From NCBI GenBank assembly GCA_963817895.1, contig CAWFQB010000007.1, positions 1 to 64,000 of the forward strand: a DNA stretch of 64,000 nt, in the 5' to 3' direction. The notes below the pieces were generated by a model. The model saw only the letters and a list, made by a program, of their open reading frames with translations. It did not search any database and was not told the DNA's origin. Source of the DNA: an uncultured Chthonomonadaceae bacterium (lineage in GTDB: Bacteria > Armatimonadota > Chthonomonadetes > Chthonomonadales > Chthonomonadaceae). The translations under genes were made by a program, and so were the position numbers. This document shows, piece by piece, positions 32,975-47,667 of the stretch (position 1 is its first letter; every line of letters starts with the position of its first letter).

Positions 32975-34750
32975 CTATCGTTGGAACGGCATGGCTCTGT
33001 TGGTTGGCACGGGAATACGCGGAGTTGTGTAGCGCAGATTGGGCGTGACAAAGCGCGTCGCCGGAGGGTTCGCGGCGGTAAGATTCGGCTTGACCCCGCT
33101 GTTCCTTTCTGCGCCAATAGCCTCTTTGCGGGGCTTGCCGAAGTCTTCGGGGTTGAGATACTTGCCCGCTTCTGTTCCGGTTTTCTCCTGCTCCACTTGC
33201 AGCGGATGGTGTTTGGCGTAAGCGTCCGCGCGTACCGCTGTTACCTGCCACGAAACCTTCAGGCCGGGTTTGCCTCCCGCGATGGCAAACTGATTGTGGT
33301 CCATCTCGCGGTCTACATACACGGGAGCGTAGCCGCCCACACAGGTAAGCTGGTAGCGGCAGTCGCTATTTTCCGCTTGAAACCACTCGGGCATATCAAT
33401 AGTCGCTTTACCGTCGCTGTCGAGCAGGGTGTTGCCGCTATACGTGTTGAGTTGTTCGCTGCTTTCCACGCTGGCGTGAACGAGGTATTTGTGAGCAGGA
33501 TCGAGCGGATGATCTATTTTGAAGTGCTTGGTCGCCGCGCTCAAGGTTCCGGTGACCTGCACATCCCCCTGAAAGTAACCCGCGTACCCGCCGTTGCCCA
33601 AGGGAGCGCCATACACGCCCACGCGCCCGTAGCCCACCACGCCCAAACCGGCATTGCACTGTCCCTGCAAGCCGACAGCGTTGAGGAAGCCGTTGTCGTT
33701 ACGAAAGTAGCCGCTCGGGCTTTGCGTGGAGTTGCCGATCCCGATGACCGCTGCGCCGCCGGCAGCATTGGTTCCATACACGCCTGCCGCTTCCGCGCGT
33801 TCCGTGTATCCGTACACGCCATATCCATTCTTGCTTTGCCCCCACGTTCCCGCGCCGGAATTGGTGTTGACGCCGTACACGGCCGGGTCGTTGGGGCTGG
33901 CGCTCACACCGGCGACAGCCGTGGTGGTGATGCTGCTGCCAAACACGCCTGCCGCGCTGAAGACGCCGTTGGAGTTAATGCCGTTGCTGACGCCGTACAC
34001 GCCATACGTGCCTGTCGTTCCTCCGGGGATGCCGCTTATTCCATACAGCGCAGTACCTATGTCATTCGTGCCGAATACCCCCGGAAAGGTGAGAGCGCCT
34101 CGACCCCACACGCCGACCGCAGGCGTGGTTCCTGTGGACGCGCCATAAACGCCCGCAGACGTGGCGACGCCGTTGAAGACCGGTGGGGGAATGGAGGTGG
34201 AACCGACAAACCCTGTGAGTCCTATCACGCCGTAGCCCATAGCGCTTCCGCCGCGTACCCCAACGGAGAGGCCCGATCCATATACGCCTGTATCGCCGGA
34301 ACCCTGTACGCCTATGCCCGTGTTGGTACTGCCCGTAAAACTGGCCGTGCCGACCACGCCTCTGCCATCCTGAGATGTAGCCTCCCCCATCATGCCCACG
34401 CCTTGACTGCCCGTATTCAGGCCATAGATACCCAAAGTGTTGTGTTGGGTGGCAGTTCCCTGAATAGCAGTAGGGGTAAGAAAACTAAACTGACTTGTAC
34501 CCGTATTCGTAACAGCAAACGCCGCGTGGTCGGTAGACGCGGAACCCTGATAAGGCAGCGTCCAAATCGTGCCGTCACCGAGAGCGGGTTCATACGCCAG
34601 CGTGACGCCGAGCAGCAGGATGGTTCCCGCGAAGCGCTGCACAAAGCGCTGCCGGGGAGCGCGTGTCCGCAGCCAATTCAGGAAGCGGGTAACGCCTGCA
34701 TGAGACGGGACAGGCTGAGAGTTGGTTTCAAAGCGTTGCTTTTGCATCAT
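32975..34750 (-). CDS. Secreted Gly-rich GVYG-repeat (fibre/adhesin-like) protein with conserved C-terminal domain
   Basis: Many GVYG/GVFG/GVWG repeats; YAGYFQGDVQVTGTL; FKIDHPLDPAHKYLVHASVES; RYQLT; VSWQVTAVR; GGAG RBS before ATG 34750. Confidence 0.8.
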   Translation of the reverse strand: MMQKQRFETNSQPVPSHAGVTRFLNWLRTRAPRQRFVQRFAGTILLLGVTLAYEPALGDGTIWTLPYQGSASTDHAAFAVTNTGTSQFSFLTPTAIQGTATQHNTLGIYGLNTGSQGVGMMGEATSQDGRGVVGTASFTGSTNTGIGVQGSGDTGVYGSGLSVGVRGGSAMGYGVIGLTGFVGSTSIPPPVFNGVATSAGVYGASTGTTPAVGVWGRGALTFPGVFGTNDIGTALYGISGIPGGTTGTYGVYGVSNGINSNGVFSAAGVFGSSITTTAVAGVSASPNDPAVYGVNTNSGAGTWGQSKNGYGVYGYTERAEAAGVYGTNAAGGAAVIGIGNSTQSPSGYFRNDNGFLNAVGLQGQCNAGLGVVGYGRVGVYGAPLGNGGYAGYFQGDVQVTGTLSAATKHFKIDHPLDPAHKYLVHASVESSEQLNTYSGNTLLDSDGKATIDMPEWFQAENSDCRYQLTCVGGYAPVYVDREMDHNQFAIAGGKPGLKVSWQVTAVRADAYAKHHPLQVEQEKTGTEAGKYLNPEDFGKPRKEAIGAERNSGVKPNLTAANPPATRFVTPNLRYTTPRIPVPTNRAMPFQR

Positions 34751-35099
34751 GGTGGACTCTCCTTTGTGTAAGCGGGGGGAGGTTGTAAGGGGCAATGCGG
34801 CAGAGTATTCCCTGCGATTTGCGCGATTTCCTGCTTCCTGCATACTGTTTTCGCGGACGGAGGTATTTCGCATACAGCGCGTTCCGCTTTTTCAGGCGCA
34901 TAGCGAGTGGTTTCAACAGGAGTTTTGACAAAGGGTGGCGAATAGTGCGGTGAAACATCATCGGCGCGGGAATGACGCCAAACAAAGCGCGTATAAATAT
35001 AGATAATCCGCAATGACAAGGTGGAACGAACCCGCCCTGCGCCGCTGAACAGAATAGCCCATTCATGTAAGATTACAGTATTGAAAGGGAGCAGACGCC

Positions 35100-36080
35100 G
35101 TGATTTATGAACACGCGACGGAATTTGCGGGCAAGCCCGTGAAAGACTGGAATCTTGGCGACGCCGCCGACCCGCAGTTTACCTATCGAATTCTGGTGGA
35201 CTACGAGGATGCAACGCTGTGGATGGACAAACTGGCTGCATTTCTGGAAACGCCGGGGGCGGAACAGGCGACCGGGCTGATTGTGGGCAACTGGGGCGAG
35301 GTTGCCAGCGGCGATGATTCCGCCGAACTCGTGGAAGCGCTGACCGTTGCCCGCGACCGCCTGCCCAACCTGACCGCGCTGTTTATGGGCGACCTTGTGG
35401 GCGAAGAGAGCGAACTCTCGTGGATCAACCAAACCGATGTGTCGCCCCTGTTCAGCGCGTATCCCCGGCTGGAACATTTTCGGATACGTGGCGGCGCGGG
35501 ATTGCGCTTTGGTGGACTGCACAACCCACATCTGAAAACGCTGATTGTGGAAACCGGCGGTCTGCCCGTGGAAGCCCTGCAAGACATTCTAAACGCGCAA
35601 CTGCCCAATCTGGAGCATCTGGAAATCTGGCTTGGCGAAGAAAACTACGGCTGGAACGGCAGCATTGACAGCCTGAAACTCCTGATGGAAAACGATCTGT
35701 TTCCTAAACTCGCTTATCTCGGCCTGCGCAACAGCGCCATTTCCGATGCGATTGCCGCCGGATTGGTCAACGCGCCTATCATGCAGCATCTGCGCGTGTT
35801 GGATTTGTCTATGGGAACGCTGTCAGACGAGGGCGCGAAAGCTTTGCTGCAAAGCCCGCACCTGTCCCGGCTGGAAAAACTGGATTTGCACCACCATTAC
35901 CTGTCCGACGCCATGATCGCGCAACTGACCGGCAACCCCGCGCCGGACGCGGCGGCGCAGCCGCCCCTGGAGGGCATTGCCCCCGAACTGGCCCGTTCGC
36001 CCGGAATCGGCATCGTCGTGGATGTCAGCGACCCGCAGCATGAAGAAGAGTATGGGCGCTATGTTGCCATCGGAGAGTGA
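35100..36080 (+). CDS. STM4015-family leucine-rich-repeat protein
   Basis: LIVGNWG; LPNLTALFMGD....E.ELSWI; LIVETGGLP; LEHLEIWLG...YG; LDLSMGTLSDEGA; LDLHHHYLS; C-terminal RYVAIGE. Confidence 0.85.
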   Translation: MIYEHATEFAGKPVKDWNLGDAADPQFTYRILVDYEDATLWMDKLAAFLETPGAEQATGLIVGNWGEVASGDDSAELVEALTVARDRLPNLTALFMGDLVGEESELSWINQTDVSPLFSAYPRLEHFRIRGGAGLRFGGLHNPHLKTLIVETGGLPVEALQDILNAQLPNLEHLEIWLGEENYGWNGSIDSLKLLMENDLFPKLAYLGLRNSAISDAIAAGLVNAPIMQHLRVLDLSMGTLSDEGAKALLQSPHLSRLEKLDLHHHYLSDAMIAQLTGNPAPDAAAQPPLEGIAPELARSPGIGIVVDVSDPQHEEEYGRYVAIGE

Positions 36081-37266
36081 AACGCCGGAAATCGAACCGC
36101 TGCCGCCTGTGTCCCGCCCATTTGTCGTGATCGGCAATCCTTTGTGTCCCCGCGTGGATCGGTTTCAAACCGCGCTTGCGGGGTTGGGATTGCCGCCCGC
36201 GCAGGAAATCGCGTGGACGGACATTCTGGCGGGAGCGTCTGTTTGCCCGATGTGGTTCCTCCCGGCGCGATTGTCCGATTGGAAGCGCCCGGAACCGCCT
36301 TTCAACGGAACGCGCATTGCTGGCATTGGGGGCCGACCTGCCCGACCCGGAAGCGAAATACGAGCGTATTCCAAAACACGATGCGGCGAACATGGAGTTT
36401 CGATAAGGGGCGAATCGTCTGCCCCCGGCAATGGTATCTTGGGTTTCAAGCCGTACTGGAAATCGTGGAAGCGCAGTTAGCCGCCTGCGTCCACATTACG
36501 CGCATGAACCACCCGCCCGATATTGCCGTGATGTTCGACAAGCCACGTTGTCAGGAACGATTGCGGCTTGCAGGATTGCCGATTCCGCGCCCGTTGGGAA
36601 TTATCGCCGGATACAACGATCTTGTCGCCAAAATGCAGGCGGCGGATTGCGGGCGCGTGTTCGTGAAACTGGCGCACGGTTCGAGCGCGTCCGGCGTGGT
36701 GGCGTACCGAACGCAGGGCGACAGGCATCAGGCCACGACAACCGTGGAAATGGTAAAGCGGAACGGCAAACTGTTCTTATACAACACCCGCGATATACAG
36801 GTGTATACGCGACCCGAATGTGATTGCGGAACTAATAGATGCGCTGGCGCGGCATCGGGCAATGGCGGAAGAGTGGATACCCAAAGCGGGCATGGACGGA
36901 CACTGTTTCGATCTGCGCGTTGTCGTAATCGGCGGACAGGCGCAGCACGTCGTCGCCCGCCTGAGCCGCAAGCCCATGACCAACCTGCACCTGCGCAATC
37001 CGCGCCGCTCGTGGGAATTTGCGCGGGAATACATTGGCCCTGCAGCCGCCCATGCCGCATTGCAAACCGGTGAGGCCGCCCTGCGCTGTTTTCCCCACAG
37101 CCTGTACGCGGGCATTGATCTGCTGTTCGCGCCCGGCCTGCGCCGCCACGCCGTTCTGGAACTGAACGCTTTCGGCGACCTGCTTCCCGGCACACTCCAC
37201 GAGGGACGCGACACGTACACGGCGGAAATTCTTGCCGCATTGAGTGAGGAAGAAACAACGGATTGA
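36061..37266 (+). CDS. STM4014-family ATP-grasp protein; about 4 frameshifts in this sequence
   Basis: Segments across frames: FVVIGNP..RV..F, VRLEAPG, PRQWYLGF, MFDKP.C, VFVKLAHGSSASGVVA, EEWIPKA, FDLRVVVIGG, PMTNLHL, LELNAFGDLLPG. Confidence 0.8.
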
Positions 37267-37469
37267 GGAACCGCGAAATACGCGAAATAAACGAAAAGAA
37301 GAACAAAAGGAGAATAGACAGGATTAACAGGATTTTCAGGATTGAACAGGATTACAACAAGACGAAGGCTTGCCCCATCTGTTGTTCTCATCCGTGTTTC
37401 TCCGTGTCCTCCGTGTTCTCCGTGGTTTATCTTTTCTTTTTTCGTTTGTTTCGCGTGTTTTGCGGTTCC
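37267..37469. repeat. Nested short-period inverted-repeat element
   Basis: Outer arms ggaaccgcgaaatacgcgaaataaacgaaaa / ttttcgtttgtttcgcgtgttttgcggttcc enclose a CAGGATT array (37316-37355) and a CTCCGTGTT array (37388-37428). Confidence 0.8.
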
Positions 37470-37495
37470 CATCGCATTGGAAGTGAGTGGACTAG

Positions 37496-38307
37496 ATGTT
37501 GAACGCGCGGGAACTGGTGGGTACGCATGACGTGCTGTTGGTGACGCTGGATACTCTGCGCTACGATGTGGCGCGGGATATGCTGGCGGCGGGACAAACG
37601 CCGTTTCTGGCTTCGCTGCTGCCCGAACGGGGTTTGGGAGGAGCGGCACACGCCGGGAAGTTTCACGTATGCGGCGCATCAGGCGTTTTTCGCCGGGTTT
37701 CTGCCCACTCCCGCCGCGCCGGGACGCCATCCGCGCCTGTTTGCCGCCCGGTTCGCGGGCAGCGAAACCACAATGGACGGAACCTGCGTGTTCGACGCGC
37801 CCGACATCGTGACCGGATTTGCGGCAACGTGGCTATCATACAGTTTGCATCGGCGGCGTGGGGTTTTTCAACAAGCAAACGGCGCTGGGAAGCGTTCTGC
37901 CGGGTTTGTTCGCGGAAAGCCACTGGTCGTCGGAATTGGGCGTGACCGATCCGCGCTCAACAGAAAATCAGGTTCGGCTTGCCGCGCAAATTCTGAACGG
38001 ATTGCCGCCGGAAAAGCGCGTGTTTCTATTCCTCAACGTATCGGCATTGCATCAGCCCAACCGCTTTTATCTGCCGGGCGCGATGGAGGACACGCTTGAA
38101 TCTCACGCGGCGGCGCTGGCGTATGTGGACAGTCAACTGCCGCCGCTGTTCGCGGCATTGCAGGCGCGCGGCCCGTCGCTGGTTGTTCTGTGTTCCGATC
38201 ACGGCACGGCGTATGGCGAAGACGGCTATGAAGGCCACCGCATCGGCCATTCCGTCGTCTGGACGGTTCCCTACGCCGAGTTTATCTTGCCAGGTGACAT
38301 ACGATGA
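37496..38307 (+). CDS. STM4013-family sulfatase/alkaline-phosphatase-fold hydrolase; 2 frameshifts
   Basis: [65 protein letters not shown]. Confidence 0.82.
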
Positions 38308-38602
38308 TTGTGGAAGCATCAGGAAATTTGCTGGCTGCGGATGTGGACGCTCTGGTAAACACCATCAATACGGTCGGCGTCATGGGTAAAGGGATCGCGC
38401 TGCAATTCAAGCAAGCGTTTCCTGCGAACTTTCGTGCTTATGAAGCAGCCTGTTTGCGCGACAGGAAAACATCGGTTCGCTCGCGCTCCCGCCATTGGGT
38501 TGCGGGTTGGGCGGCTTGCAGTGGAGCGAGGTATGCCCACTCATTGAACAAGCATTCGCTGTCCTGCCGGATGTGGAAATTCGTTTGTATGTGCCGAAAT
38601 AG
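38304..38602 (+). pseudogene. DarG-like macrodomain gene with an internal deletion and frameshift
   Basis: N-half [33 protein letters not shown]; in another frame the C-half [23 protein letters not shown]; the central INFPTK-type segment is absent. Confidence 0.8.
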
Positions 38603-38626
38603 ACAAGAGTGTAAGGAAGCAACAAA

Positions 38627-40054
38627 TTGACAGTATCGCTTGATGCAACACCCTACGCGGGCTATACCTATGCGTACCCGCATAAGACGGCGTACCGCCC
38701 GCTTGTTCCGCCTGTATCCTTGAAGAATTTGTGGCAGGGCGAGAACCGGGACGCGCTATTCTTATATCTGCATGTGCCGTTTTGCGAGATGCGCTGCGGG
38801 TTCTGCAACCTGTTTACGACCGCGAACCCAAAGCAGAATTTTACGACCGCGTATCTGCAAGCGTTGCGGCGGCAGGCGGTTCAGGTACGGGAAGCGTTGG
38901 GGCAGGCGCGATTTGCGCGGCTTGCCATTGGTGGCGGGTACGCCGACGTTTCTCAACATCGCGGAACTGGAAGAATTGTTCGGGATTGTTACCGATCTGT
39001 ACGGCGTGGAACCGGGTGCAAATTCCCGTTTCTGTGGAAACGTCGCCGCGCACGGCGGAACCGGAGAAATTGACATGGCTGCGCGAACGGGGCGTGGATC
39101 GTATCAGCATGGGCGTACAGAGTTTCTCGAGCCGGAAGTGAACGCTTCGGGACGGGCGCAGAAAACGGCATGGGTGGAAGACGCGCTGGAACACATACGC
39201 GAAGCAGGCTTTCCTACGCTCAATATTGATCTGATTTACGGCCTGCCGCATCAGACGGTCGGCAGTTGGCTGTGTTCGCTGGAAATGGCGTTGCGCTGGC
39301 AGCCGGAAGAGTTGTTTTTGTATCCGCTGTACGTGCGCCCGCTCACCGGATTAGGACGCAAAGCGCAAAAAGTCGCAAAGTTTAAGACTGTCGGGAAGCA
39401 GGTACAACCACAAGGCGCGAAGTTCCGACGGTTTTCGATGACGCTGCATTAGAAGAATGAATAATGCCGCGCTTGCAGGTGATGATATTCGGCTTGCCTG
39501 CTACCGGGCGGGGCGGGAATTGCTGCTGGCGAACGGCTACGCGCAGGTGTCTATGCGGATGTTCACGCGCCTGAAAACCGGTTCCGAAGTTGCAAAGCCG
39601 GATGTGGCGTACTGCTGTCAGGAGGATGGCATGGTGGGGCTTGGCTGTGGCGCGCGTTCCTATACAACACGTTTGCACTACGCCAGCGAGTACGCGGTGG
39701 GCGCGCCGGGAGTGCGCGACATTCTGCGCGATTATGTCGGCAAGACTGCGGAAGCGTTTCAGTTTGCCGATTACGGTTACGCGCTTTCCGAAGCAGAGCA
39801 GAAACGGCGGTTCGTCATTCAATCCCTGCTGCAAACGTCAGGATTGGATCTGAGCGCGTATTTACAGCGGTTCGGAACTCGTTCCCCTCGCGGATTTCCC
39901 CGAACTGGCCGAACTCATCACGCGCGGATTGGCCGAACCCAACGGCAACGCGCTGCGATTAACCCCGGCAGGCATGGAACGCTCGGACAGCATTGGCCCC
40001 TGGCTCTACTCCCGCGAAGTCAACGTCCTGATGCAAACCTACGCGCTGCATTGA
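38627..40054 (+). CDS. STM4012-family HemN-like radical SAM protein; several frameshifts plus an insertion near 39360-39480
   Basis: [29 protein letters not shown] (CxxxCxxC), [73 protein letters not shown]. Confidence 0.82.
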
Positions 40055-40064
40055 TTACGATTCT

Positions 40065-40135
40065 AATAGCCCTCAATGGATGGCGTCCACTTGTAGACAT
40101 ACCCCTTCTCCCAAAGAAGCCTAAGCGAAGGGGAA
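40065..40135. repeat. REP-like element related to 11272, 55792 and 59801
   Basis: aatagccctcaa..ggcgtccacttgtagaca..ccccttctccc..gaagggga. Confidence 0.6.
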
Positions 40136-40185
40136 CTCATAAAGGCAGACGCTAACTACTATTTCACTACGGGACACATTTTGTC

Positions 40186-40284
40186 AGGGGTTGAAAACCC
40201 CTGTCTACATGGCCTGCGGCCAAGCGTCCTTCGGACGCAAATGCTTGTTTACAGTCTCTCGCGTCCGAAGGACGTTTGGCGGAA
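40186..40284. repeat. REP-like hairpin cluster
   Basis: aggggttgaaaacccct hairpin; ccaagcgtccttcggacgc with its inverted partner gcgtccgaaggacgtttgg; 35 bp shared with the MITE at 25984. Confidence 0.6.
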
Positions 40285-40353
40285 CGCCACTCAGACGGGT
40301 ATTTTCAATACCCGGAAACAAGGCGAGCGGTAGTGAAACCGCTATTCAACACT

Positions 40354-41205
40354 ATGGAACTATCAATTCTTTATCGGGGGCCGCTGTCGAGCTGCAATTA
40401 TGGCTGCGATTACTGCCCGTTCGCCAAGCATGTGGAGACGGATGCGGAACATGCGGCGGACGCGGCGGCTTTGCAGCGATTTGTGAATTGGATTACCGGG
40501 CGCGAAGAGGATCAGTTGTCGGTTCTGTTCACGCCGTGGGGTGAGGCATTGGTACGCAAACGGTATCAACGCGCCCTTGTCCATTTGACCAATCTGCCGC
40601 AAACCCGCAAAATCGCTATTCAAACCAATTTATCCTGCCGGCTGGAATGGACGGAAGAGTGCGACAAACAGAAATTGGGATTGTGGGCGACCTATCATCC
40701 GACGCAAACCACACGCGAGTTCTTTTTAGGTCAGTGCCGCAAACTGGACTCGCTTCAGGTGCGGTACAGCGTGGGCGTGGTTGGCATGAAGGAGCATCGG
40801 GACGATATTGAAGCCATGCGCCGGGAACTGCCGCCGCATGTGTACCTGTGGATAAACGCCTACAAGCGCGAAGCTAACTACTACAGCGACGACGAACTGC
40901 GCCACTTCACGCGGATTGACCCGCTTTTCCCCATCAACAACACGCGCCACCCCTCGCAGGGACTCGCCTGCCGCGCGGGAGACAGCGTTATCTCCGTAGA
41001 CGGGGACGGAACCATGCGCCGCTGCCACTTCATCAAAACTCCGATTGGCAACCTGTACGCCCCCGATTTTGCCGACTGTCTGCGTCCCGCCCCCTGTACC
41101 AACAAAACCTGCGGCTGCCACATCGGCTATGTCCACATGCCGCATTTGAAGCTGTACGAGGTGTTTGGGGAGGGCGTTTTGGAAAGGATGAGGGATGAAG
41201 GATGA
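40354..41205 (+). CDS. STM4011-family radical SAM protein (intact)
   Basis: ILYRGPLSSCNYGCDYCPFAK, FTPWGEAL, IQTNLS, LWATYHP, YLWINAYK; Cys-rich C-terminus (CRAG..RRCHF..C...TCGCHIGYVH). Confidence 0.88.
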   Translation: MELSILYRGPLSSCNYGCDYCPFAKHVETDAEHAADAAALQRFVNWITGREEDQLSVLFTPWGEALVRKRYQRALVHLTNLPQTRKIAIQTNLSCRLEWTEECDKQKLGLWATYHPTQTTREFFLGQCRKLDSLQVRYSVGVVGMKEHRDDIEAMRRELPPHVYLWINAYKREANYYSDDELRHFTRIDPLFPINNTRHPSQGLACRAGDSVISVDGDGTMRRCHFIKTPIGNLYAPDFADCLRPAPCTNKTCGCHIGYVHMPHLKLYEVFGEGVLERMRDEG

Positions 41206-41315
41206 AGGATGAAGGCAATGCCTTTTCTCTACTTGCCTTCCCCACGTTGAGGATGGGGCTATAAAGAAGCGCATCCTCTTCATCCCTCATCCTTCATCCC
41301 TCATCCTTCATCCTT
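41185..41315. repeat. Heptamer inverted-repeat element (GGATGAA)n ... (TTCATCC)n
   Basis: Arms at 41185-41214 and 41278-41315 between convergent stops; the STM4011-like stop codon lies inside the left arm. Confidence 0.85.
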
Positions 41316-41317
41316 TG

Positions 41318-42439
41318 CTACGTTTCCATCACCGGCTGATACTCGTCGGGATTGTCGAAACCGGCCAACCACGCGGCGGCGCGGCGGCACGTTCGGATTT
41401 CGGGCGGGACGCGCAGCATGTACTCTCGCTCGGTTGAAGGACAGGAAACGGACAGGCAGACGAGCGGTTCGTCACCGGCAATGGGAACGCGCAACAGGCT
41501 TCGCTTTCCGCCGGGATCGGTGTCCGTGTCCAGAACCTCTGCTTTCGCCTGCGCCATGAAGACCTCGTAGCCCATGCGTTCCATCAGGACGCGGCGCAAT
41601 TCCACATTCACCGTTTGCAGTATCTCATTGGGCTGAATGGTTTCCGGCTCAAAGGCGATACGGCGGTCAATGGTCACGCCGCGCCAGCGGATTTGCGCGT
41701 TCGCCACGCCCGGCGGCAGGGACGTGATGCCCGTATTGGCGATATCAATCCATGAGCGAACCCGCAGAGAGGGCGGCAAATCGGTAATGTTGGCGCAGCC
41801 GCTCAGGTCGAGTTGGGATATGTCCGTAAGCCAGTCGGGAAGGGCCGTGAACTGCATACAGCCCCGCGCCACTAATCGGCCTATCTGCACAGTGGCGTGT
41901 CGAGGCCAATGATGCATGCCCAGACAGCCGGAAATATCCAGAAACGAAACGTCCAGCCCCTCCGGCAGGGTTTCCAGACTGGTACAATCGCGCAGCAGCA
42001 GAGAACCGACTTTCAGGCCGACAGGCAACGTTTCCAACACTACGCAGCCGCTGCAATCCAGCCGAAAATCTACGCGCAGGTCGGAAGGCAGACCGTGCAG
42101 AAGCGTGTTGTTCAGGTTCAGTTCATTGCAATGCAGGCCATTTGGAAGGCTTTTCAATCCGGTGCAGCCCGTCAGGTTGAGACAGCGCGTTTTCAGGCCG
42201 TCGGGCAGAGTTTCCAGCGTGTCGCAGCCGCTCAAATCAATGTTGTCAGCCTGCAAACCGGCGGGCAGGGTAGTCAGCCAGTTTCCCCCGCTCAACACAA
42301 GTGAACCGGAAACGCGCAGGTTGGTGGGAGCGCGGTCTTTCAAAATCAACGCTGCCGCCTCTTTTGCCGGAACAGGCGCGTTGTTTTCTGAGGATGTAGT
42401 ATTGAATTCAATATCGCGGTCAAGGAGCAGGGCAGTCAT
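41318..42439 (-). CDS. LRR-repeat protein with C-terminal DUF6745-like domain
   Basis: Repeated LxxLPxGL/LDLSGC units, then NVELRRVLMERMGYE.F and V.CPSTEREY.LRVPP....C..A.AW..G; GGAG RBS before ATG 42439. Confidence 0.82.
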   Translation of the reverse strand: MTALLLDRDIEFNTTSSENNAPVPAKEAAALILKDRAPTNLRVSGSLVLSGGNWLTTLPAGLQADNIDLSGCDTLETLPDGLKTRCLNLTGCTGLKSLPNGLHCNELNLNNTLLHGLPSDLRVDFRLDCSGCVVLETLPVGLKVGSLLLRDCTSLETLPEGLDVSFLDISGCLGMHHWPRHATVQIGRLVARGCMQFTALPDWLTDISQLDLSGCANITDLPPSLRVRSWIDIANTGITSLPPGVANAQIRWRGVTIDRRIAFEPETIQPNEILQTVNVELRRVLMERMGYEVFMAQAKAEVLDTDTDPGGKRSLLRVPIAGDEPLVCLSVSCPSTEREYMLRVPPEIRTCRRAAAWLAGFDNPDEYQPVMET

Positions 42440-42458
42440 GGCAGATTCTCCGTTCAGA

Positions 42459-42571
42459 GGTGGTTGGTGACTGGTGGTTGGTGGTTGGTGGTTGGTAACT
42501 GCGTCTGCGGAAATGCGCGAAACCTTTAACCAGTACAACCAATCACCAGTCACCAGTCACCAACCACCAAC
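42459..42571. repeat. Heptamer inverted-repeat element (GGTGGTT)n ... (CACCAAC/CACCAGT)n
   Basis: Arms at 42459-42496 and 42538-42571, between two co-directional genes. Confidence 0.85.
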
Positions 42572-42868
42572 TCAGTCAATCACGCGGCGAATGGCAGTGG
42601 GCGTGTATTCGCGCTGGAACCAGAACTTGTAAAGACCCTGCGGCAGCGTGATAGGCTTGTGTTCCTGATGCACAATGCGGGCGGTGTCGCCGGTCACTTC
42701 CAGAAACATTTCGCCCTGATGCTCCCACAGAATGGCGGTTGCGCCATCCTCAATGCGGTGGCTGTGTCCGGTCAGTTCGCCCCGCGCCAGAATGGTGGTT
42801 GCGCGGCGTTTCGCGCTTTCGGGAAGAGCGGGCGCAGCCGCAATCAGAATATCTCCGTGTCTCCACAT
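42572..42868 (-). CDS. Small 98-aa His-motif protein (RHGD..GELTGHSH..HQEH..QREY)
   Basis: AAGGA RBS before ATG 42868; clustered His/Glu residues suggest metal binding; directly upstream of the DUF6745-like gene. Confidence 0.8.
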   Translation of the reverse strand: MWRHGDILIAAAPALPESAKRRATTILARGELTGHSHRIEDGATAILWEHQGEMFLEVTGDTARIVHQEHKPITLPQGLYKFWFQREYTPTAIRRVID

Positions 42869-43151: not shown

Positions 43152-44903
43152 ATGTTGTTCAAACGCCGCTCTCGTTCCTCTTTGCCGTTGTTGCGTTCTT
43201 TTCTGCCGATCACGTTGAGTTTGTGCGCGATGCTGCCGGTTGTTACCCCGCCTGCCCGCGCGCATGGCAGGTTCGCGGGTTCGGGCAGCCAGTTGTTCGC
43301 TGAAGGCAAGTTCAATCAAGCGCGGGATGCTTATGCGTCCGCCGTCAGGAGCGATCCCAAAAACCCGGTTTTGCGCGTGGGGCTGTTGCGGACGTATCTG
43401 CGTCTGGACGACTGGCAGAACTGCGTGTCCGAAGGGCAAAAATTCGTTGCCGCGCTGCCTGCCAGTGCCGACGCGCATGGCCTGCTCAGTCTGGGGCTGA
43501 TGCGGGGCGGGCGTCCCAAACAGGCCGAAACCGAGGCCTACAAGTCGCTTGCTCTGGATGCCAGAGACTACTGGGGGCTTGTGGCGCGTGGGCGCGTCCT
43601 GACCTTCAATGAGCAAAAAGGCGAGGCCCGCGAAACGCTTACCCACGCCTTTGATATGCACCCCGACTGGCCCGACGCGCCCTTTTATCTGCTTCAAACT
43701 CTGGAGGAGAAGACCGGCGACGAGGAGAGGCAAAAAATCTATAAAGCCTACCTCAAAACCAATCCCAAAGGCCACCCGCACGACCGAACGATGGATAGCC
43801 TGTCCCGCGCGATGGATACCTACAACCCCGCCAACAGTCGTGAAGCGGACAAACCGGACAAAACTACAGGCGACCCAAAACCGGACGGGGAAAAAAAGGC
43901 GGACGGCAATAAGAAACCCGGCAGGAAGAGAGAAGCGCCGACGTTCGAGGCTATCGGCGCGATCAATGAACAGAAATTGAAGGACGCGGATGAGGGCAAA
44001 ATCAAGCCTGTTACCATTACCATCCCCTTTGAGCGCCTCAAACAGGACAACCAGACGATTATCATTCCTCTGAGCATCAACGGCGTCAGTATGCGGCTGC
44101 TGTTCGATACGGGGGCGGGACACGGCATTTCCGTTACCGGGGATGCCGCCGAGCGCTTAAACCTGCCCGCCATTTACAAATCGTTCGCGCGCGGCGTGAG
44201 CGGCAAGGAAGAGATACGGGTGTGCCGCGCCAAAGAGATGAAAATCGGCGCGCAGATGTTCAAGAACATCCCCGTAGATACTACCGCGAACGCCATTTCA
44301 CCCGACTTTGACGGGCTGATCGGTGGGGCGGTATTCGAGGAGTACGCCGTCACCGTAGATTACGAGAACAACAATCTGGTGCTGACGCGGGGCAAAACGG
44401 CAGCCGCGCCCGCGCCCGAAGAGGGCAATCATATCACGACGGTTCCCTTCCACGATTTTGGCGGCTACATAATTGTGCCGCTGAAACTGGAAGATCGCAG
44501 CGAGGCGGAATGGGGATTGCTGGATACGGGGGCGCAGGGTATGGGCGTCCTCTCCTATATTACCGCGTCACAACTGGCGAAAAAACAGCATACGGACGCG
44601 CAGGCGAAAGTCCACATTAACCAACGGCTTGGGGTCGGCACAACCAACACGGGCTTCGACGCCATTTTGTTCGAGTTCGCCATTGATTTGGGGTTGGTCT
44701 ACAACGCCGGAACGCCCTTCTTCATGGAGATGAAGCCCATTTACGGCGCGTCCATGATTGACACGGAAGTGAACCGCAGTTTCGACTTTCATCTGAGCGC
44801 GATTGTGGGCATATCGTACCTTGCCGAGGCCAAGCGCGTCACGTTCGACTACCCGCGCCACCTGCTCACAATGGAGGCCGGCCCGAAAACCGCCCAACCG
44901 TAG
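43152..44903 (+). CDS. Secreted TPR-repeat protein with tandem retropepsin-like aspartyl protease domains
   Basis: Signal peptide; TPR-like helices; LLFDTGA..DGLIG and LLDTGA..AIVG..L....VTFDY. Confidence 0.85.
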   Translation: MLFKRRSRSSLPLLRSFLPITLSLCAMLPVVTPPARAHGRFAGSGSQLFAEGKFNQARDAYASAVRSDPKNPVLRVGLLRTYLRLDDWQNCVSEGQKFVAALPASADAHGLLSLGLMRGGRPKQAETEAYKSLALDARDYWGLVARGRVLTFNEQKGEARETLTHAFDMHPDWPDAPFYLLQTLEEKTGDEERQKIYKAYLKTNPKGHPHDRTMDSLSRAMDTYNPANSREADKPDKTTGDPKPDGEKKADGNKKPGRKREAPTFEAIGAINEQKLKDADEGKIKPVTITIPFERLKQDNQTIIIPLSINGVSMRLLFDTGAGHGISVTGDAAERLNLPAIYKSFARGVSGKEEIRVCRAKEMKIGAQMFKNIPVDTTANAISPDFDGLIGGAVFEEYAVTVDYENNNLVLTRGKTAAAPAPEEGNHITTVPFHDFGGYIIVPLKLEDRSEAEWGLLDTGAQGMGVLSYITASQLAKKQHTDAQAKVHINQRLGVGTTNTGFDAILFEFAIDLGLVYNAGTPFFMEMKPIYGASMIDTEVNRSFDFHLSAIVGISYLAEAKRVTFDYPRHLLTMEAGPKTAQP

Positions 44904-44907
44904 GGGA

Positions 44908-44938
44908 GTTGATAGATAATAGTTGATAGTTGATAGAG
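44908..44938. repeat. Short TTGATAG heptamer array
   Basis: gttgatagataatagttgatagttgatag; a similar array occurs near 59735. Confidence 0.5.
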
Positions 44939-44979
44939 CCTGCCAGTGAAAGGAAGGCGCATGTCCGAGAGTAACGCCT

Positions 44980-45300
44980 TTTGACTGCCCCGCAGCATCC
45001 AGTGCCAGCGTTCGCCTAACACGCTATGCCAGACGCGCCGCAGCTCCTGAGCCGAACAGTTCCACAACTGCTCCACTGTCGTGACGCCAAACTCGTTCAA
45101 ACGCCGCTTCATCGCGCTGCCAATCCCCGGCAAGTCCGTCAGCTTCAATGCAAATAGCGCGTCCGGCAGATGGTCTTCGGGCCAGATGGTCAGGCCGTCC
45201 GGCTTTTGGCAGTCCGAAGCGACTTTGGCGAGAAACACATTGGGCGCGATGCCGACCGAGCGCGTCCGCAGGACACCAGCTTTGTCCAGCCAGAGATTTT
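44980..45300 (-). pseudogene. Internal fragment of a Y-family DNA polymerase (DinB/Pol IV-like)
   Basis: SVGIAPNVFLAKVASD.QKPDGL and LTDLPGIG....RL...GV.TV.QL; the catalytic N-terminus and little-finger domain are absent. Confidence 0.75.
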
Positions 45301-45320
45301 CAATCCCTGGCGATCCCGCT

Positions 45321-47651
45321 CTATTCGGACAGAGCAACGGTCAGCATTTCGCTTTCATCATTTGGCTTGAGGAGAACGCCCTCCGTTCCTGTTTGCATCG
45401 TTCCGCCGGTTATGGAAGCAGCAGTCTGAACGCCCACCAGCAGTATTTGCCAGTTGTGGTTGGCCCCCTCTGCGCGGAATTGTATCTGTGTCCCGGTTCG
45501 GCGCGTTGTCACTGTCAGCGCCGGATTGCCGCTCAGGTCGGGAATCGTGGTGACAATCTCCTTTTCCGATTCCAATTCGTATACGCGCAGGGTCACGCCG
45601 TCTGCAAAGTCGTAATCCGGCTTGTCGTTATTGCTGCCAACCGGAATGACCGAATGGGGGCGAACCAGCAGGGGAACGCTCATAAAATCGTGCGTTTCGC
45701 GTACCCAACCCGGCCCGCTGATTACTTTGCCCGTGAAGAAGTTCGTCCATTTGCCTTCGGGAACGTAGTAGTCCACGACGCCGTTTGTGGTGAAAACGGG
45801 CGCGACGAGCAGCGAGTCACCAAGCAGATATTGCCGGTCCAGCGTGTCGCAGGCGGGATCATCGGGAAATTCCAGCATCATGGCCCGCATCGGCCGGTAC
45901 GCCCGTCCGGTGGGATTGAACCGCCTGCCCGAACAGATAGGGCATCAGGCGGCACTTCAGTTTGGTGAAAAAGCGCAGCGTGTCTACGGCCTCGTCATCG
46001 AACAGCCAGGGAACTCGGTACGACGAACTGCCGTGCAGGCGGCTGTGCGACGAAAGCAGGCCAAACGCGATCCAGCGCTTGTACACTTCGGCCGGTGGCG
46101 TGCCCTCAAAGCCGCCGATGTCGTGACTCCAGAAGCCGAAGCCGGACAGACACAGCGACAGTCCGCCGCGCAGGCTTTCCGCCATAGACTCAAAACTGGA
46201 ATAGCAGTCGCCGCCCCAGTGCACGGGAAACTGCTGCCTGCCCGCCGTTGCCGACCGCGCAAACAGAACGGCTTCTCCCCTGCCCCGCTTTTCCTCCAAA
46301 ACATCGAAGACGGCCTTATTATAAAGGTAAGAGTAGTAGTTGTGCATCTTCTGCGGGTCGGAACCATCCTGCATACACGACATCGGTGGGAATACGCTCG
46401 CCAAAATCGGTTTTGAAGCAGTCCACGCCCATGTCCAGCAGCGCGCGCAGTTTGTCGCCGTACCACTGGCAGGCGTCCGGGTTGGTAAAATCCACAATGC
46501 CCATGCCCGCCTGCCACTGATCCGTCTGCCACACATCGCCATTCGGCTTTTTGAGCAGATAACCCCCGCCTTGCCCTCCGCGAACAGCGGCGAGAGCTGC
46601 GCGATATAGGGATTGATCCAGACGCAGATGTGCAGGCCGCGCTCTTTTAGCCGTTGCAGCATGGCGGGCGGGTCGGGAAACGCGCGTGGCATCCCACTCG
46701 AAATCGCACCAGCGAAACTCACGCATCCAGAAGCAGTCGAAATGAAAAACGTGCAGCGGCAAATCCCGATCCGCCATGCCCTGTATGAAACTCGTCACGG
46801 TCTGCTCGTCATAACTTGTGGTAAACGAGGTTGTCAGCCACAGCCCGAACGACCACGCGGGCGGTAGGGCAGGCTTGCCGGTCAGGGCGCGTATATTTCG
46901 CCAGCACCTCTTTGGGCGTCGGGCCGTAAATCACAAAGTAATCCAGCGTCTGCCCTCGAACGCTGAACTGAACGCGCGAAACCTTTTCCGATGCCACTTC
47001 AAACGACACGTCTTCGGGGTGATTGACGAACACGCCGTACCCCCGGTTGGTCAGATAAAACGGCACATTCTTATACGCCTGTTCGCTGCCGGTTCCGCCG
47101 TCCCTGTTCCACGTTTCCACGACCTGCCCGTTCTTGACAAAGGCCGTAAACCGCTCGCCCAATCCATACACGCACTCGCCCACACCCAGAGCAAGCTGTT
47201 CGTGCAGATACGGCCCGTTGCCCTCGACTTCCGCCAGTCCCAGCCCTTTTTGCCCGCTTTTCGTAATGGTGTTTCCATTGCCGACAAACTCCACTCCCCA
47301 CCCTTCGCCCCGCGCCACCTTCACGGCTAAATTGCCGCTGGCGAGGGTAGCGAATTCCTTATCCGCGCTCACCGTCACGCCTGCCGCTCCTCCTGCAAGC
47401 AGCGGAAACTGCGGACTGGCTTCCCGCTCGCCGCCGAAATGCGTGACCTGTACGCAAATCACGTCCAGCAGGGGCGAGGAGTAACGCACGGTCAATAATG
47501 GACCGTCCAGCGTGTTACCCCGGTTGTGAATCCGTTTCGCGGGAACCTGAACGACAAGCGCGTCCGGCAGGGTTTCCACCTCATACGCCTGTCCCGCATA
47601 AAATGCGCGAACGCCCTTCCGCATCATCCAGTTGCCATCCGTAAACTTCAT
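45321..47651 (-). CDS. yicI: Alpha-xylosidase (GH31, YicI-like); several frameshifts in this sequence
   Basis: MKFTDGNW, GTGSEQAYKNVPFYL, HFDCFWM, VWINPYI, FKTDFGERIP, VHWGGDC, WSHDIGGFE, SHSRLHGS, QYLLGDSLLVAP, spread over 4-5 ORF pieces. Confidence 0.88.
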
Positions 47652-47667
47652 TGTCAAACCTCTTTTG

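Follow-up and report, generated by a model that had tools for sequence, protein, structure and literature searches.

The locus described here raises the question of what chemistry is carried out by a cassette of orphan enzymes and repeat proteins. It lies in a 64,000-nucleotide stretch (hereafter, the window) of contig CAWFQB010000007.1 from an uncultured Chthonomonadaceae bacterium (assembly GCA_963817895.1), in which five co-directional forward-strand genes of the STM4015, STM4014, STM4013, STM4012, and STM4011 families (the core) converge on two reverse-strand genes (the pair), encoding a small histidine-motif protein (the His protein) and a leucine-rich repeat (LRR) protein with a DUF6745 domain. 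An earlier note, made from the sequence alone, had recognized these genes by motif; all seven are present at the coordinates it gave, and profile hidden Markov models confirmed the families, NCBIfam for STM4015 to STM4011 (in the case of STM4012, through pieces that individually score below the cut-off) and Pfam for DUF6745. The note also knew of no demonstrated function for the STM4011-15 families, and we found none in the literature searched. Here, we tentatively propose, from sequence comparisons, that STM4014 ligates an amine to the tail of STM4015 and that radical S-adenosylmethionine (SAM) and phosphoesterase enzymes tailor the product, likely in a setting of nucleic-acid or phage stress. 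Genetically, we regard the system as a core of five genes plus a unit of two that is optional yet functionally tied to it.

In the proposed scheme, the core would assemble a chemical group at the free C-terminus of the LRR protein that it encodes itself. STM4014, which is RimK/LysX-like, would attach an amine to the terminal Glu of STM4015, a near-invariant residue, the radical SAM enzymes STM4012 and STM4011 would then tailor the adduct, and STM4013, of the nucleotide pyrophosphatase/phosphodiesterase (NPP) type, would trim a phospho group from the adduct or its precursor. A phosphorylated or nucleotidylated amine might serve as the donor, as suggested by STM4013 and by a recurring phosphatase of the haloacid dehalogenase (HAD) superfamily. 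We infer both the role of STM4015 as the substrate and the order of the steps. The modified protein, rather than a recycled carrier, would be the end product, and the pair would form a separable complex of two proteins that binds metal and has a variable binding arm; it is kept by many cassettes as an optional partner and is common in phages. The cassette occurs across many phyla, Salmonella included, and its ligase and both of its radical SAM families are orphans. If correct, the scheme would extend the C-terminal chemistry of LysW and RimK to large sensor-like proteins and assign substrates to both radical SAM families.

The first line of evidence is the STM4015 tail. A C-terminal Glu was found in 53/55 copies and in 57/63 further copies, giving 110/118. 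The tail runs from an acidic stretch through, usually, RY-x-AV-[SG] to the terminal Glu, which is kept in divergent tails (YYPMITE, YFVEVGE, and YLYEGDIE) and in STM4015 forms fused to a WGR domain. A conserved C-terminal end is absent in STM4014, STM4013, and STM4011 and partial in STM4012 (LR in 17/48). The adjacency of STM4015 and STM4014 persists in split cassettes (loci L033, L045, L050, L067, L073, L128, and L211). At L205, L212, L216, and L225, a longer LRR protein precedes STM4014 and ends in ...GDIE, ...ADIE, or ...GDME, with the terminal Glu kept; a WGR domain is present in three of these proteins and a short head domain, which we take to be TIGR02996-like, in all four. Tandem STM4015 copies were seen at the Herpetosiphon-type loci L133, L134, L136, L137, and L138 (3-4 copies, the distal one without the terminal Glu), and the cyanobacterial locus L132 has four STM4015 copies.

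The second line of evidence is the resemblance of STM4014 to ligases that act on a terminal Glu. Single-sequence searches of the Protein Data Bank (PDB) with STM4014 and STM4013 orthologs were uninformative, and profiles were required. When a profile of 37 STM4014 proteins was searched against solved structures in PDB, the six best of 40 matches were RimK/LysX proteins (E values of 6e-5 to 6e-4), with RimK at 6e-5 and LysX at 4e-4. Residues K141, K183, D264, R266, N288, and N349 are invariant in STM4014, and R266 aligns on R189 of RimK, with the invariant DLR on DIR189 and TNLH on SNLH. One published study describes RimK R189 as the site for the C-terminal (first) Glu of the acceptor and as conserved in LysX/ArgX (PMC10375531), and another describes LysX/ArgX as joining an amine to the terminal Glu of LysW (PMC4490483).

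The other three core enzymes would provide the tailoring steps. The earlier note had described STM4013 as a sulfatase-fold hydrolase; the fold is correct, but the active site is of the NPP type, with a Thr nucleophile. The family consensus PGSFTYAAH, with an invariant T58, aligns to SLTFPNH of NPP, and the best solved match in a profile search was the Xanthomonas-type NPP 2gsn (E = 4e-5). Formylglycine sulfatases carry the nucleophile motif C/S-x-P-x-R; this motif is missing in STM4013, and its Thr nucleophile is that of NPP, which rules out a sulfatase. By sequence, STM4012 is HemN/NocN-like, with a scaffold as in class C radical SAM methyltransferases: the intact ortholog at L002 matched HemN (E = 2e-30) and NocN (E = 3e-23), and the family consensus contains CxxxCxxC. 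HemN-like enzymes also catalyze reactions other than methyl transfer. STM4011 possesses a second Cys cluster (invariant C204, C222, C246, C251, and C253) and gave weak matches only, to the peptide-modifying SkfB (E = 0.02) and ChlB. A HAD phosphatase lies within 1.5 kb of 11/159 core loci, compared with 1 farther off; a Cof-type HAD follows STM4011 in Salmonella and is fused to STM4011 in Bacteroides finegoldii (L122:8950-10530), where a WGR-STM4015 protein is also present. Since STM4013 is of the NPP type and a HAD phosphatase recurs, a phosphorylated intermediate in the cassette chemistry is likely.

Several observations weigh against this scheme. The terminal Glu is missing from 6/63 of the further STM4015 copies, five of them distal copies of Herpetosiphon-type arrays and one an extra cyanobacterial copy. 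The ligase matches are weak in E value, with cyanophycin synthetase next at 1e-3; ligase activity is predicted from sequence. In phages, the His protein ends in Asp in 23/23 copies without a nearby ligase; thus, conservation of an acidic residue at the end of a protein does not by itself indicate ligation there, and the terminal Glu of STM4015 could be structural. At the Bacteroides locus, STM4012 is absent and STM4013 is present only as a fragment. WGR domains, to which we return below, lie within 1.5 kb of no more than 12/159 core loci (farther off at 2; the 7.5-Mb genome of the window holds 1 copy). The pair is absent beside 18/19 randomly sampled cassettes (present at 1/19, or at 1/16 without three that are cut by contig ends; five of the 19 loci are near-kin Chloroflexota, and centre genomes and G000 were left out), and it is therefore not needed for the core chemistry. 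Finally, the STM4014, STM4013, and STM4012 genes of the window may be true pseudogenes.

The same ligase and tail evidence would also suit carrier-protein biosynthesis, in which STM4015 would be loaded, tailored, and unloaded to release a small metabolite, following the logic of LysW and other amino-group carrier proteins (AmCP) or of pearlins. NPP and HAD enzymes are compatible with phosphorylated intermediates, and according to a study on pearlins, both pearlin and AmCP pathways assemble their products on the carrier C-terminus, where radical SAM enzymes act in the case of pearlins (PMC9303977). According to the same study, however, these pathways end in proteolytic release (PMC9303977), and no recurring peptidase or transporter was found among the neighbors of the cassette (2,382 open reading frames [ORFs] clustered, 45 largest clusters inspected), although a peptidase gene could lie elsewhere in the genome. 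An LRR carrier of 300-500 amino acids (aa) that bears WGR heads and occurs in as many as four copies would also be unlike the small carriers. Because no release peptidase recurs among these neighbors, a modified protein is more likely than a recycled carrier. We accordingly lean toward a modified protein, and rate a released metabolite as a less likely candidate.

Whether the pair belongs to the same system was addressed from both sides. For the pair, we used the best 80 of 426 His-gene loci in Genome Taxonomy Database (GTDB) genomes, which are closest to the query, overstate the family as a whole, and include kin that are not independent. DUF6745 was present in 77/80 (two of the misses lie at a contig edge), at least one core gene was found within 10 kb in 47/80, and all five core genes in 32; among loci with full flanks, 25/43 had a core gene. 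For the core, a pair gene accompanied 35/80 metagenome loci (best 80 of 432), 9/20 of those with full flanks, and 7/12 records of a plasmid collection (12 of the 13 matched). STM4011 scored above the cut-off in 0.3-4% of genomes in five phylum samples (8/201, 2/151, 1/301, 5/201, and 6/251, centre genomes included; the 301-genome sample was centered on the genome of L052), and since a core gene nevertheless occurs at 47/80 His-gene loci, pair and core cluster far beyond chance. The idea of the earlier note that the seven genes form one module is thus supported in part, by the enrichment of the pair at STM4011-15 loci; the lack of enrichment that the note had named as refuting its idea was not observed. 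An obligate association is not supported, as each unit also stands alone. The core often lacks the pair, as in Salmonella, Paenibacillus, Bacteroides, and cyanobacteria, and the pair was found without the core at 26/26 viral loci, in Hymenobacter and Nostoc, and at 18/43 full-flank genome loci.

These solitary viral and genomic pairs, together with the core without the pair in 18/19 sampled genomes, would fit hitch-hiking of a pair that has no functional tie and was once inserted beside the core. So would the position of most linked copies in one clade and the lack of a DUF6745 match in 5 core-bearing genomes, a search run without a positive control. In 151 genomes of a planctomycete's phylum, PF20530 and STM4011 coincided in the centre genome alone, PF20530 being found in 6 others and STM4011 in 2; the PF20530 model scores LRR-type DUF6745 copies weakly. 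Against hitch-hiking, pair and core have stayed linked through five or more rearrangements, in one of which the pair lies between STM4015/14 and STM4013. The linked loci show at least five different gene orders, one with the pair inside the operon: convergent, as in the window; a single run His-DUF-15-14-13-12-11 (L030, L071, L075, and L123); 14-15 divergent from His-DUF-13-12-11 (L033, L045, L050, and L067); divergent in Streptomyces (L120 and L145); and split (L073). A quick tree was built from 95 DUF6745 domains (135 columns; 14 short-flank rows and metagenome loci left out). In it, three linked actinomycete copies formed their own branch outside a 72-row clade holding the other 52 linked rows, which would fit two recruitments or one old link; the window copy fell into a mainly cellular LRR clade. 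A genome of the same phylum grouped with Capsulimonadaceae in this tree, as would suit an Armatimonadota host. A second DUF6745 lineage, of the non-LRR type and from Actinomycetota, is also linked, and both repeat proteins share the same WGR head. We consider hitch-hiking unlikely.

Within these data, the pair-core link is the first to place a large and unnamed family of phage proteins in a cellular context. The His protein family comprises 6,521 clusters at 50% identity. Residues H37, H67, H70, H35, D6, E31, E69, Q85, and E87 are kept in 134-148 of 150 diverse members, and Asp is the last residue in 134/150; D6, E31, the four His residues, and the terminal Asp are retained throughout the 23 phage copies. 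A metal site formed by H35, H37, H67, H70, D6, E31, E69, and E87 is likely. The structural model is all-beta, with a predicted local distance difference test (pLDDT) score of 87 and low confidence over the last 8 residues, and this tail may fold on a partner. The DUF6745 protein (model pLDDT, 94.8) combines a variable repeat arm, consisting of LRRs here and of SV-rich repeats in some phages, with a conserved C-terminal domain of ~130 aa that ends in E/Q-T/S/A (E-T in the window copy). Comparison with known folds gave no clear match of the His model to a cupin or another known metal-binding fold (best VIA Z score of 4.4, root mean square deviation [rmsd] of 2.6, 50 aligned residues; best Foldseek E value, 0.57) and no clear match for the DUF6745 C-terminal domain (best Z score of 4.6, rmsd of 4.0, 67 aligned), and a search of the ESM Atlas with the pair proteins returned unnamed clusters alone; a missing fold match does not establish a new fold. 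As the Asp tail of the His protein is conserved where the ligase is absent, STM4014 probably does not use the pair as another substrate.

In viruses, 26/26 loci carry the His gene, most carry DUF6745, and none has a core gene. Among the phage neighbors with a named function (110/146 ORFs scanned), annealases, helicases, nucleases, replication initiators, and integrases predominate. Microcystis phage Ma-LMM01 likewise has no core genes; there, the pair (gp175/gp174; L125:3767-7257) lies in the replication region between gp176, a weak match to a processivity factor, and a uracil-DNA glycosylase gene. In Hymenobacter and Nostocales, a gene for a vWA-domain protein (619 aa in L057) follows the pair at 12/68 pair-only loci (L038, L040, L043, L052, L055, L057, L058, L062, L064, L065, L070, and L081), possibly as a three-gene variant. 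L052 is labeled Janthinobacterium, but its DUF6745 and neighboring genes group with Hymenobacter, and it is likely a misbinned contig.

A hint at the setting comes from WGR, which is a nucleic-acid-binding domain. It is fused to STM4015-type proteins at seven loci (L036, L073, L122, L128, L205, L216, and L225) and fused to, or located directly ahead of, DUF6745 at L066 and L080. That the two repeat proteins have this head in common is the strongest hint that they respond to a nucleic-acid cue and would point to a setting of nucleic-acid damage or phage conflict. The earlier note had offered protein or nucleotide modification or repair, or a conflict system; protein modification has gained specific support, and the support for nucleotide repair and anti-phage activity is indirect. 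In an anti-phage defense system, the LRR/WGR proteins would sense infection, the enzymes would make an effector, and the pair would be a captured phage counter-defense or a helper. The patchy distribution (0.3-4% of genomes), the WGR fusions and expansion of STM4015 copies, the location of the pair among replication and recombination genes in phages, and HipA or RES toxin-antitoxin genes near 3 annotated plasmid-collection loci all speak for it. On the other hand, PADLOC 2.0 (library from 2023) gave no match for 6/7 proteins and one weak, partial HemN-like match (E = 2e-7 over 76 aa), the inspected neighbor clusters were mostly housekeeping genes, although this is not a formal defense-island test, and the Salmonella cassette lies among housekeeping genes between ompL and typA. 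We rate defense as improbable, on a par with hitch-hiking. A combined variant, in which LRR/WGR sensors of a conflict or stress system would be armed on the terminal Glu by the LysX-like ligase and the two radical SAM enzymes, and the phage-borne His/DUF6745 pair would be a metal-dependent reader or eraser, a counter-measure recruited more than once by hosts as a control unit, appears somewhat more doubtful still.

The window copy itself differs from its relatives by two features that the earlier note overlooked, frameshifts in three enzyme genes and a macrodomain remnant at 38304-38602. Frameshift-aware alignment to the intact L002 orthologs revealed 11 frameshifts (4 in STM4014, 2 in STM4013, and 5 in STM4012) at identities of 58-74% and with zero stops within aligned codons; STM4012 also contains a ~35-codon insert with a stop. 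Most indels are located at short base runs, and at 5/11 places, the contigs of relatives carry the opposite indel (run X1). Because there are eleven indels without any nonsense change, we favor consensus error in a long-read assembly, which is the probable cause. Against such an error stand a background of just 24 frameshifts in 119.8 kb and 3 in 18.7 kb (obtained with less sensitive methods), four clean flanking genes, and the deletion in the macro gene, which looks like real decay. Our mechanistic arguments are based on intact orthologs rather than on the frameshifted copies; being frameshifted, the window copy is a poor experimental model, and intact cassettes are known at L002 and L111 (Capsulimonadaceae), L123 (Methylobacterium), L124 (Deinococcus), and L120 (Streptomyces).

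The macrodomain remnant overlaps the stop codon of STM4013; its N- and C-terminal ends are in different frames, and the middle is missing. It matched NF048014 (E = 2e-25 over the first 50 aa) and PF01661, and with about 100 codons in two frames, it scored 89.6 bits against the cut-off of 250 for full-length DarG. A general NCBIfam scan of 18 ORFs gave no match to DarT, and no search aimed at DarT was made. The remnant would support a cassette that processes ADP-ribose or related nucleotide adducts in the repair of modified proteins or DNA, as would the NPP-type STM4013 and the WGR heads. Single-locus inserts inside cassettes include an ADP-ribosylglycohydrolase (L186:5712-6551) and a NUDIX protein (L007:13237-13719, in a stretch from which STM4012 is absent), both of which would suit this idea, and a Uma2 endonuclease (L006:7792-8283). 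An ADP-ribose theme is not enriched near the 159 core loci, however (macro at 0, ADP-ribosylglycohydrolase at 1 with 2 farther off, and NUDIX at 3 with 2 farther off), and a relative's contig joins STM4013 directly to STM4012 without a macro gene. The remnant is private to this lineage, a macrodomain as an eighth system member is ruled out by 0/159 core loci with a macro gene nearby, and ADP-ribose processing is the least probable of the explanations weighed here, a very unlikely one.

The features of the locus are compiled in Table 1. With NCBIfam models, STM4015 scored 308 bits (cut-off, 275) and STM4011 409 bits (cut-off, 200). The frameshifted genes were detected in three scored pieces each, which together tile their models: STM4014 at 21/146/180 bits and STM4013 at 47/96/258 bits, the best piece exceeding the cut-offs of 175 and 250, respectively, and STM4012 at 148/131/175 bits, each below the cut-off of 380, with 61% identity to an intact ortholog over 426 codons. 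The DUF6745 protein reached 69.3 bits with PF20530 (gathering threshold, 27), and the sole family match of the His protein was phrog_27831, with no Pfam or NCBIfam model matched. One copy of each system gene is present in the genome. Matches of LRR sequences to the effectors XopL, XopAC, and XopAE (17-33 bits against cut-offs of 450-600) were discarded as generic LRR similarity.

Table 1. Features of the STM4015-STM4011 locus and the convergent pair in the window
Feature	Coordinates	Strand	Remarks	Model
STM4015-family LRR protein	35100..36080	+	Intact, 326 aa, ends ...RYVAIGE	NF038076
STM4014-family ATP-grasp ligase, RimK/LysX-like	36077..37266	+	4 frameshifts	NF038074 (pieces)
STM4013-family alkaline-phosphatase-superfamily enzyme, NPP-type Thr nucleophile (PGSFTYAAH)	37496..38307	+	2 frameshifts	NF038075
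Macrodomain (DarG-N-like) remnant	38304..38602	+	Not a conserved member	PF01661, NF048014
STM4012-family HemN-like radical SAM enzyme (CxxxCxxC)	38627..40054	+	5 frameshifts, ~35-codon insert	NF006067 (pieces)
STM4011-family radical SAM enzyme, C-terminal Cys cluster (Twitch/SPASM-like)	40354..41205	+	Intact	NF038073
LRR-DUF6745 protein	41318..42439	-	Intact, 373 aa from ATG at 42439	PF20530
His-motif protein	42572..42868	-	98 aa, all-beta model, likely metal-binding, C-terminal Asp	phrog_27831

A promoter and terminator scan of the locus was near chance (7 versus 3.6 +/- 1.9; 8 versus 11 +/- 3.7). Four intergenic palindromic elements (37267-37469, 40162-40338, 41183-41316, and 42459-42571), two with 7-nucleotide tandem arms, are presumably of the repetitive extragenic palindromic (REP) or miniature inverted-repeat transposable element (MITE) kind, with 47-126 similar genomic sites apiece, and do not belong to the system. 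The locus is flanked by genes for a 632-aa Gly-rich repeat protein without a Pfam or NCBIfam match (32975-34873, reverse strand) and a TPR plus aspartyl-protease protein (43152-44903, forward strand). Farther on, a DNA polymerase IV (DinB) gene fragment of about 100 matching residues (44849-45337, reverse strand) is followed by a glycoside-hydrolase-like gene, which we take to be alpha-xylosidase-like (45321-47657, reverse strand); it is apparently split over four ORFs, suggesting further indels near the locus.

Searched by name, the STM4011-15 families appeared in lists or passing mentions and in no functional study within the literature available, most subscription papers lying outside it; DUF6745 and PF20530 were not mentioned in the literature searched by name, and concept-level searching returned nothing on the cassette. 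In Streptomyces, Deinococcus, and Methylobacterium, public annotation already places the five families and DUF6745 next to one another. The NCBIfam names come from the Salmonella locus that lies between ompL and typA, which has all five families (NF038076, NF038074, NF038075, NF006067, and NF038073) in the same order and orientation as the window; it differs by a Cof-type HAD after STM4011 and no pair nearby, whereas the window copy has the pair, the macro remnant, and the frameshifts. The phage pair of phrog_27831 and DUF6745/phrog_31813 (gp175/gp174 in Ma-LMM01) represents the same families, adjacent and co-directional, but in phages the arm is mostly of a non-LRR kind, and the vicinity contains no STM genes. 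With pearlins, the cassette would share modification at the C-terminus of a protein and tailoring by radical SAM enzymes (PMC9303977). Pearlin pathways depend on a PEARL ligase that uses tRNA, on a short carrier peptide, and on a protease, and the window cassette shows none of the three.

In the proposed chemistry, the cassette resembles the LysW/LysX (ArgX) amino-group carrier systems and RimK-RpsF glutamylation, in which an ATP-grasp enzyme with a Glu-binding Arg meets a partner with an acidic tail and a terminal Glu. STM4014 has the ATP-grasp motifs, the Arg for the first Glu, and [ST]N, and its best match to this group, at E = 6e-5, makes it a candidate member. LysW is a small carrier with an EDWGE tail, and its pathway uses a kinase, a reductase, and an aminotransferase. 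In the window, by contrast, the partner is a 326-aa LRR protein with the tail RYVAIGE, no release peptidase recurs among the 45 largest neighbor clusters, and the core has two radical SAM enzymes and an NPP. Judging from these sequence features, the cassette would work like LysW/LysX or RimK tail ligation, with a carrier of a different type.

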